Shown here: piece after piece, positions 14,301 to 17,300 of the stretch
How the letters are laid out: every line of letters starts with the position of its first letter
How positions within the stretch are numbered: position 1 is the stretch's first letter
Origin: Escherichia coli
Lineage (GTDB): Bacteria; Pseudomonadota; Gammaproteobacteria; Enterobacterales; Enterobacteriaceae
Reading direction: 5' to 3' (one strand)
Length of the DNA: 64,000 nt
Assembly (NCBI RefSeq): GCF_024223415.1
Contig: NZ_CP100500.1
Program-made: the position numbers

Positions 14301-17300
14301 CGACGCCGACGGTGCCACCAGCACGGCTCTAAGCGTGCTGGCGATGCGCTCGCTTGGTTGCAGCGATATCGACTACCTGGTACCAAACCGTTTCGAAGAC
14401 GGTTACGGCTTAAGCCCGGAAGTGGTCGATCAGGCCCATGCCCGTGGCGCGCAGTTAATTGTCACGGTGGATAACGGTATTTCCTCCCATGCGGGGGTTG
14501 AGCACGCTCGCTCGTTGGGCATCCCGGTTATTGTTACCGATCACCATTTGCCAGGCGACACATTACCCGCGGCGGAAGCGATCATTAACCCTAACTTGCG
14601 CGACTGTAATTTCCCGTCGAAATCACTGGCAGGCGTGGGTGTGGCGTTTTATCTGATGCTGGCGCTGCGCACCTTTTTGCGCGATCAGGGCTGGTTTGAT
14701 GAGCGTAACATCGCAATTCCTAACCTGGCAGAACTGCTGGATCTGGTCGCGCTGGGGACAGTGGCGGACGTCGTGCCGCTGGACGCTAATAATCGCATTC
14801 TGACCTGGCAGGGGATGAGTCGCATCCGAGCCGGAAAGTGCCGTCCAGGGATTAAAGCGCTGCTTGAAGTGGCAAACCGTGATGCACAAAAACTCGCCGC
14901 CAGCGATTTAGGTTTTGCGCTGGGGCCACGTCTCAATGCTGCCGGACGACTGGACGATATGTCCGTCGGTGTGGCGCTCTTGCTGTGCGACAACATCGGC
15001 GAAGCGCGCGTGCTGGCAAATGAACTCGATGCGCTAAACCAGACGCGAAAAGAGATCGAACAAGGAATGCAGGTTGAAGCCCTGACCCTGTGCGAGAAAC
15101 TGGAGCGCAGCCGTGACACGCTACCCGGCGGGCTGGCAATGTATCACCCCGAATGGCATCAGGGGGTTGTCGGTATTCTGGCTTCCCGTATTAAAGAGCG
15201 TTTTCACCGTCCGGTTATCGCCTTTGCGCCCGCGGGTGATGGTACGCTGAAAGGTTCTGGTCGCTCCATTCAGGGGCTGCATATGCGTGATGCGCTGGAG
15301 CGATTAGACACACTCTACCCTGGCATGATGCTGAAGTTTGGCGGTCATGCGATGGCGGCGGGTTTGTCGCTGGAAGAGGATAAATTCGAACTCTTTCAAC
15401 AACGGTTTGGCGAACTGGTTACTGAGTGGCTGGACCCTTCGCTATTGCAAGGCGAAGTGGTGTCAGACGGTCCGTTAAGTCCAGCCGAAATGACCATGGA
15501 AGTGGCGCAGCTGCTGCGCGATGCTGGCCCGTGGGGGCAGATGTTCCCGGAGCCGCTGTTTGATGGTCATTTCCGTCTGCTGCAACAGCGGCTGGTGGGT
15601 GAACGTCATTTGAAAGTCATGGTCGAACCGGTCGGCGGCGGTCCGCTGCTGGATGGTATTGCTTTTAATGTCGATACCGCCCTCTGGCCGGATAACGGCG
15701 TGCGCGAAGTGCAACTGGCTTACAAGCTCGATATCAACGAGTTTCGCGGCAACCGCAGCCTGCAAATTATCATCGACAATATCTGGCCAATTTAGCGTCA
15801 TCTTCTCTATAAAAAAGAGCGTGGATTGGGTACAATCCCGCTCTTATCACCGCATTTTGACTAGCTCAATAAAAGAAATCAGACCATGTTTGAAATTAAT
15901 CCGGTAAATAATCGCATTCAGGACCTCACGGAACGCTCCGACGTTCTTAGGGGGTATCTTTGACTACGACGCCAAGAAAGAGCGTCTGGAAGAAGTAAAC
16001 GCCGAGCTGGAACAGCCGGATGTCTGGAACGAACCCGAACGCGCACAGGCGCTGGGTAAAGAGCGTTCCTCCCTCGAAGCCGTTGTCGACACCCTCGACC
16101 AAATGAAACAGGGGCTGGAAGATGTTTCTGGTCTGCTGGAACTGGCTGTAGAAGCTGACGACGAAGAAACCTTTAACGAAGCCGTTGCTGAACTCGACGC
16201 CCTGGAAGAAAAACTGGCGCAGCTTGAGTTCCGCCGTATGTTCTCTGGCGAATATGACAGCGCCGACTGCTACCTCGATATTCAGGCGGGGTCTGGCGGT
16301 ACGGAAGCACAGGACTGGGCGAGCATGCTTGAGCGTATGTATCTGCGCTGGGCAGAATCGCGTGGTTTCAAAACTGAAATCATCGAAGAGTCGGAAGGTG
16401 AAGTGGCGGGTATTAAATCCGTGACGATCAAAATCTCCGGCGATTACGCTTACGGCTGGCTGCGTACAGAAACTGGTGTTCACCGCCTGGTGCGTAAGAG
16501 CCCGTTTGACTCCGGCGGTCGTCGCCATACGTCGTTCAGTTCCGCGTTTGTTTACCCGGAAGTCGATGACGATATCGATATCGAAATCAACCCGGCGGAT
16601 CTGCGCATTGACGTTTATCGCGCGTCCGGCGCGGGCGGTCAGCACGTTAACCGTACCGAATCTGCGGTGCGTATTACTCACATCCCAACCGGGATCGTGA
16701 CCCAGTGCCAGAACGACCGTTCCCAGCACAAGAACAAAGACCAGGCCATGAAGCAGATGAAAGCGAAGCTTTATGAACTGGAGATGCAGAAGAAAAATGC
16801 CGAGAAACAGGCGATGGAAGATAACAAATCCGACATCGGCTGGGGCAGCCAGATTCGTTCTTATGTCCTTGATGACTCCCGCATTAAAGATCTGCGCACC
16901 GGGGTAGAAACCCGCAACACGCAGGCCGTGCTGGACGGCAGCCTGGATCAATTTATCGAAGCAAGTTTGAAAGCAGGGTTATGAGGAACCAACATGTCTG
17001 AACAACACGCACAGGGCGCTGACGCGGTAGTCGATCTTAACAATGAACTGAAAACGCGTCGTGAGAAGCTGGCGAACCTGCGCGAGCAGGGGATTGCCTT
17101 CCCGAACGATTTCCGTCGCGATCATACCTCTGACCAATTGCACGCAGAATTCGACGGTAAAGAGAACGAAGAACTGGAAGCGCTGAACATCGAAGTCGCC
17201 GTTGCTGGCCGCATGATGACCCGTCGTATTATGGGTAAAGCGTCTTTCGTTACCCTGCAGGACGTTGGCGGTCGCATTCAGCTGTACGTTGCCCGTGACG

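Follow-up and report, generated by a model that had tools for sequence, protein, structure and literature searches.

The gene prfB appears in two pieces in the 64-kb window of E. coli DNA that we analysed (the window being the whole of this stretch): a short open reading frame (ORF) ending at an in-frame UGA is followed by a long one in the +1 register, and a 334-aa ORF is called on the opposite strand across the point where the two meet. This layout raises the question of how full-length RF2 is made from the locus, and whether the arrangement reflects recoding by the ribosome, another route to the protein, a gene on the antisense strand, or simply a defect in the sequence. We consider it almost certain that E. 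coli prfB undergoes programmed +1 ribosomal frameshifting at this site, the means by which RF2 regulates its own production, and nothing in the sequence speaks against this reading. The present analysis shows the anatomy of the site, which gene it lies in, that RF2 has no other route, the conservation of the site, and its identity with K-12, whereas the ribosomal mechanism and its dependence on RF2 are taken from the literature.

The prfB gene and the anatomy of its junction

The gene order in the window is dsbC, recJ, prfB, lysS, and idi. The region 15700–17100 is 100% identical to several complete E. coli RefSeq genomes, and the locus is present once in 5,425 of the 5,426 complete E. coli genomes; one of these 5,425 prfB copies sits on a plasmid-labelled record. 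On the identical sequence, RefSeq annotates prfB as a two-piece CDS with the note “programmed frameshift”, and K-12 b2891 is likewise annotated there as a two-piece CDS. When 15886–15960 is joined to 15962–16984, the result is a 365-aa protein that aligns over residues 1–365 with the E. coli RF2 of PDB 1GQE (E = 8e-241) with one substitution, scores 525.9 bits against the NCBIfam model TIGR00020 prfB (cut-off 370), and has the SPF motif at 205 and GGQ at 250. Judged by its sequence, the host gene is prfB, encoding the class-I release factor RF2, and lysS is its probable operon partner. The features of the locus to which we refer below are the following:

15886–15963, + strand: prfB frame-0 ORF, 25 codons and then UGA, found by ORF calling; first piece of the RefSeq two-piece CDS
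15949–15954, + strand: SD-like element AGGGGG, in codons Arg22 (AGG) and Gly23 (GGG)
15955–15957, + strand: 3-nt spacer TAT (UAU, Tyr24), separating the slippery codon from the SD-like element
15958–15960, + strand: CTT, the proposed P-site codon Leu25 (CUU), read from the sequence
15958–15961, + strand: slippery CUU-U, made of CUU plus the U of UGA (sequence; PMC12421855)
15961–15963, + strand: UGA, the RF2-specific in-frame stop, codon 26 in the frame of ATG 15886
15964, + strand: C after the stop (UGAC), a weak termination context (PMC12421855)
15962–16984, + strand: prfB +1 frame, from Asp26 (GAC) to Leu365 plus stop; carries SPF at 205–207, GGQ at 250–252, and Ala246
15947–16951, − strand: antisense shadow ORF of 334 aa, codon-aligned with the prfB +1 frame; very probably not a gene
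16994–18511, + strand: lysS, 9 nt downstream of the prfB stop and on the same strand

On the + strand of the window, positions 15946–15964 read CTTAGGGGGTATCTTTGAC, and every base of the intact CTT-TGA-C and of the upstream AGGGGG described in the first-pass annotation is in place. The C that it had reported after the in-frame stop is present at 15964, and UGAC is indeed regarded as a weak stop (PMC12421855). Its remark that prfB appears as two ORFs also agrees with ORF calling, which returned both 15886–15963 and a separate +1 frame. The sequence AGGGGGNNNCTTTGAC occurs a single time in the 64-kb window when both strands are scanned, and the number of chance matches with at most one mismatch expected in a window of this size is 0.06. 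Codon usage at the SD-like element points to a constraint at the nucleotide level that is visible in the window itself: prfB has 25 Arg codons, of which codon 22 alone is AGG, and AGG is absent from the 83 that recJ, lysS, and dsbC contain.

Folding of 15920–16010 predicted no stimulatory RNA structure (z = 0.09 against shuffles); the stimulators of the prfB frameshift are the stop codon and the closely spaced SD, with no RNA structure involved. Rfam holds no curated RNA family for the linear prfB frameshift motif. A scan of the whole window at the Rfam gathering threshold gave no match at the prfB site, and a permissive scan of 15800–16100 gave chance-level matches alone (E ≥ 1.9). A tRNA gene at 53111–53181 (+) is the only Rfam gathering-level match in the 64-kb window.

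Ahead of the gene, 20 nt past the recJ stop, the recJ-prfB spacer contains a strong hairpin at 15815–15846 (AAGAGCG-U-GGAUUG / CAAUCC-CGCUCUU). This 90-nt spacer, identical in K-12, folds at −22.1 kcal/mol (z = −3.4). On the + strand, an A-run stands before the hairpin and only a weak U-tract after it, and a terminator scan called it on the minus strand only. It may be a recJ terminator or an attenuator ahead of prfB. Promoter and terminator scanning of 15600–17100 gave sites no commoner than in shuffled sequence, and the prfB promoter was not located by it.

Routes to full-length RF2 and the antisense ORF

RF2 could be made with no frameshifting if translation started elsewhere in the +1 frame or if ribosomes read through the UGA. 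The first-pass annotation had itself pointed to an alternative in-frame start as the finding that would count against a frameshift; we found none. A 293-aa ORF is called in the +1 frame from ATG 16103 (Met73), which could be taken to favour such a start, but this frame carries a TAA at 15905, is open from 15908, and has no ATG, GTG, or TTG after 15905 until that same ATG 16103, and a product starting there would be short of 72 N-terminal residues. Furthermore, orthologues retain the frame-0 peptide that an alternative start would bypass (...LRGYL, ...FRGSL), and solved RF2 structures contain it from residue 1 on. Readthrough fares no better: the frame-0 continuation beyond the UGA is an Arg-rich, non-homologous sequence that ends at a stop at 16057. 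We consider it very improbable that RF2 arises by either of these routes. Since the +1 frame has no start before Met73, full-length RF2 requires the +1 shift.

Another reading is that the antisense ORF is a real overlapping gene. It is long, it begins with TTG, and it is open in this strain and also in K-12. However, it lies in register with the prfB +1 frame (coordinate mod 3 = 2 for both) and is open because prfB avoids the codons TTA, CTA, and TCA, which are antisense stops in that register: a single one of the 341 +1-frame codons belongs to this set, the final Leu365 at 16979, and the other two antisense registers of prfB contain 12 and 13 stops. The same shadow-ORF artefact is seen in lysS, with 2 such codons among 506, where an antisense ORF of 471 aa (16979–18394, −) runs in the lysS codon register with no frameshift; recJ, with 13 of 578, has no antisense ORF of such length. 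In relatives, stops break up the antisense frame of prfB: Escherichia albertii has 3 of them, Citrobacter werkmanii 2, and Enterobacter 3, and the median over 90 species is 7. The ORF has no Pfam match and corresponds to no RefSeq CDS, either in the genome of identical sequence or in K-12. Broken in relatives and with no Pfam match, it shows no conservation beyond that given by the codon usage of the sense gene, and that it is a gene at all appears highly unlikely.

The first-pass annotation had offered the frameshift as the explanation for a long antisense ORF called across the site. The ORF does cross the site, but the proposed cause does not hold, the ORF being a codon-aligned shadow of the kind that lysS displays at greater length with no frameshift. 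What the frameshift does determine is where the ORF ends: because the sense register changes upstream of 15961, it terminates at a TAA, the complement of 15947–15949 (spanning CT-T AG-G), four codons past the register change. A Pfam scan of the ORF0 peptide gave no match, and no support for a function of this peptide or for an antisense gene was found in any analysis made. We would give very little credence to the idea that the released 25-residue peptide has a function of its own or that the 334-aa antisense ORF is an overlapping gene confined to E. coli.

Conservation of the site in E. coli and other bacteria

A programmed frameshift at this junction finds further support in its conservation. 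Of the 5,426 complete E. coli genomes, 5,424 were matched by a 60-nt query with the site at its centre, and identity reached ≥99% in 4,410; three sampled variant sites have their changes at 15940, 15967, and 15971, which leaves the 16-nt motif untouched. One of the 5,426 genomes has no match to the locus, and one more has no match to the 60-nt site.

For other species, we scanned one genome per species with the plain DNA pattern AGGGGGNNNCTTTGACNNNG. Among the 120 matches listed, 105 are prfB with a downstream +1 frame homologous to RF2, a sample that, having been selected by the motif, indicates the meaning and the spread of the motif, and not its prevalence among prfB genes. In nearly all of these 105 listed prfB, the BLAST homology aligns query residue 26 with subject residue 1, exactly at the junction. 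Among the hosts of the matches listed are Alpha-, Beta-, Gamma-, and Deltaproteobacteria, Bacillota, Bacteroidota, Fusobacteriota, Deinococcota, and Nitrospirota. The comparison with prfB of other bacteria that the first-pass annotation had suggested as a check bears out its reading: as here, these sites have AGGGGG, a 3-nt spacer, and CTTTGAC, and homology to RF2 is taken up again at the junction. The spacer codon and the flanks vary, with UAU (Tyr) in most Proteobacteria and Bacteroidota and UCU (Ser) in Bacillota; over the 106 other-species prfB sites among the matches listed, the spacer is T (93%), A or C, T (85%). The prfB frameshift has been reported in 64% of 12,753 genomes (PMC12421855), and in Bacteroidia the SD-like element adds little to shifting (PMC10798248).

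As for the other 15 listed matches, 13 are chance and 2 look like prfB cut short (L102 and L115). The first of these is prfB-like and runs off its locus. The second, from a Bacteroidetes MAG (JAJTCJ010000035.1), combines a typical prfB ORF0 (MITTDQLKDLRERTDALRGHL) with an intact motif, but in its +1 frame a stop comes after 69 codons and no RF2 match is seen; this is either a second frameshift introduced by assembly error or a decaying prfB.

The least probable reading of all, in which the two ORFs come from a fault in sequencing or assembly, or mark a pseudogene, and no recoding takes place, is effectively refuted by this conservation at the sequence level: although errors do occur at the locus, E. 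coli NIPH17_0036 carrying a damaged, pseudogene-annotated prfB, the one-base offset is found at the same codon in 5,424 of the 5,426 complete E. coli genomes and in 105 prfB genes of distant phyla among the matches listed, the damage in NIPH17_0036 is a mid-gene loss of 26 nt that leaves the frameshift site intact, and RF2 is, to our knowledge, the only release factor that reads UGA.

NIPH17_0036 (NZ_AP024561.1) was the lowest-ranked match and a candidate for a genome lacking the frameshift site, which we rejected, as its site is intact and the lesion is a mid-gene deletion. In the region equivalent to ~16226–16288, its prfB shows a 26-nt net loss and scrambled bases, and the gene is annotated as a pseudogene, “PCRF domain-containing protein”. 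This damage is probably an assembly error, since the strain would otherwise have no intact RF2, the sole reader of UGA.

Mechanism and comparison with K-12

The programmed +1 frameshift of E. coli K-12 prfB was reportedly described by Craigen and Caskey in 1986 and by Weiss et al. in 1987. The finding is textbook knowledge, and there is nothing biologically new in its occurrence here. Frameshifting at slippery sequences also takes place in E. coli dnaX (−1) and pheL (+1), and dnaX likewise has an upstream SD-like stimulator. Whereas dnaX shifts by −1 and has a downstream stem-loop, the prfB site here would shift by +1 and has no significant predicted RNA structure. The dnaX and pheL recoding sites are listed in PMC5373646, and the K-12 work on prfB is reviewed in PMC12421855.

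Ribosomes initiating at ATG 15886 of this locus would, 25 codons on, have CUU (Leu25) in the P site and UGA-C in the A site. If RF2 is abundant, the UGA would be read and the 25-residue peptide released; when RF2 is scarce, the ribosome would dwell on the weak stop. AGGGGG, three nt upstream of CUU, would then pair with the anti-SD end of the 16S rRNA, the peptidyl-tRNA-Leu would slip from CUU to UUU, and GAC (15962–15964) would be decoded as Asp26, translation going on to full-length 365-aa RF2. The SD-like pairing, the re-pairing of the tRNA on UUU, and the decoding of GAC as Asp26 correspond to the published mechanism (PMC12421855).

The gene order recJ-prfB-lysS-idi is common to the window and K-12, and positions 15796–16473 are base-identical between them, a stretch that takes in the 16-nt motif, the 90-nt leader, and 588 nt from the start of the gene; experimental results obtained in K-12 should therefore transfer to this site. 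On the K-12 sequence, +1 shifting at a rate that varies inversely with RF2 activity has been demonstrated by experiment (PMC5373646; PMC12421855). Ribosome profiling of K-12 RF2 at its native locus gave ~28% shifting (PMC5373646), and prfB frameshifting in E. coli reporters reached ~50% (PMC10798248). The prfB genes differ at 13 bases, 12 of them synonymous and one changing a residue: codon 246 (16621–16623) is GCC (Ala) here and ACC (Thr) in K-12. Ala246 is canonical, whereas Thr246 is peculiar to K-12 and lowers release activity, and RF2 with Ala246 placed at the native locus in K-12 gave ~21% shifting and a lower RF2 level (PMC5373646). By transfer from the K-12 and B-allele experiments on the identical site, +1 shifting in this strain would occur at a rate inverse to RF2 activity. 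We infer that its set-point would resemble that of the RF2-B case, slightly lower than in K-12 (~21% versus ~28%) and with a lower RF2 level.

For annotation, prfB in this window is to be written as a two-piece CDS, 15886–15960 joined to 15962–16984, and is not to be called a pseudogene or two genes, nor is the antisense ORF to be called. The only strain-level information that the locus provides is Ala246, which indicates that the window comes from a non-K-12 E. coli with a more active RF2, in which UGA should be a more efficient stop than in K-12.
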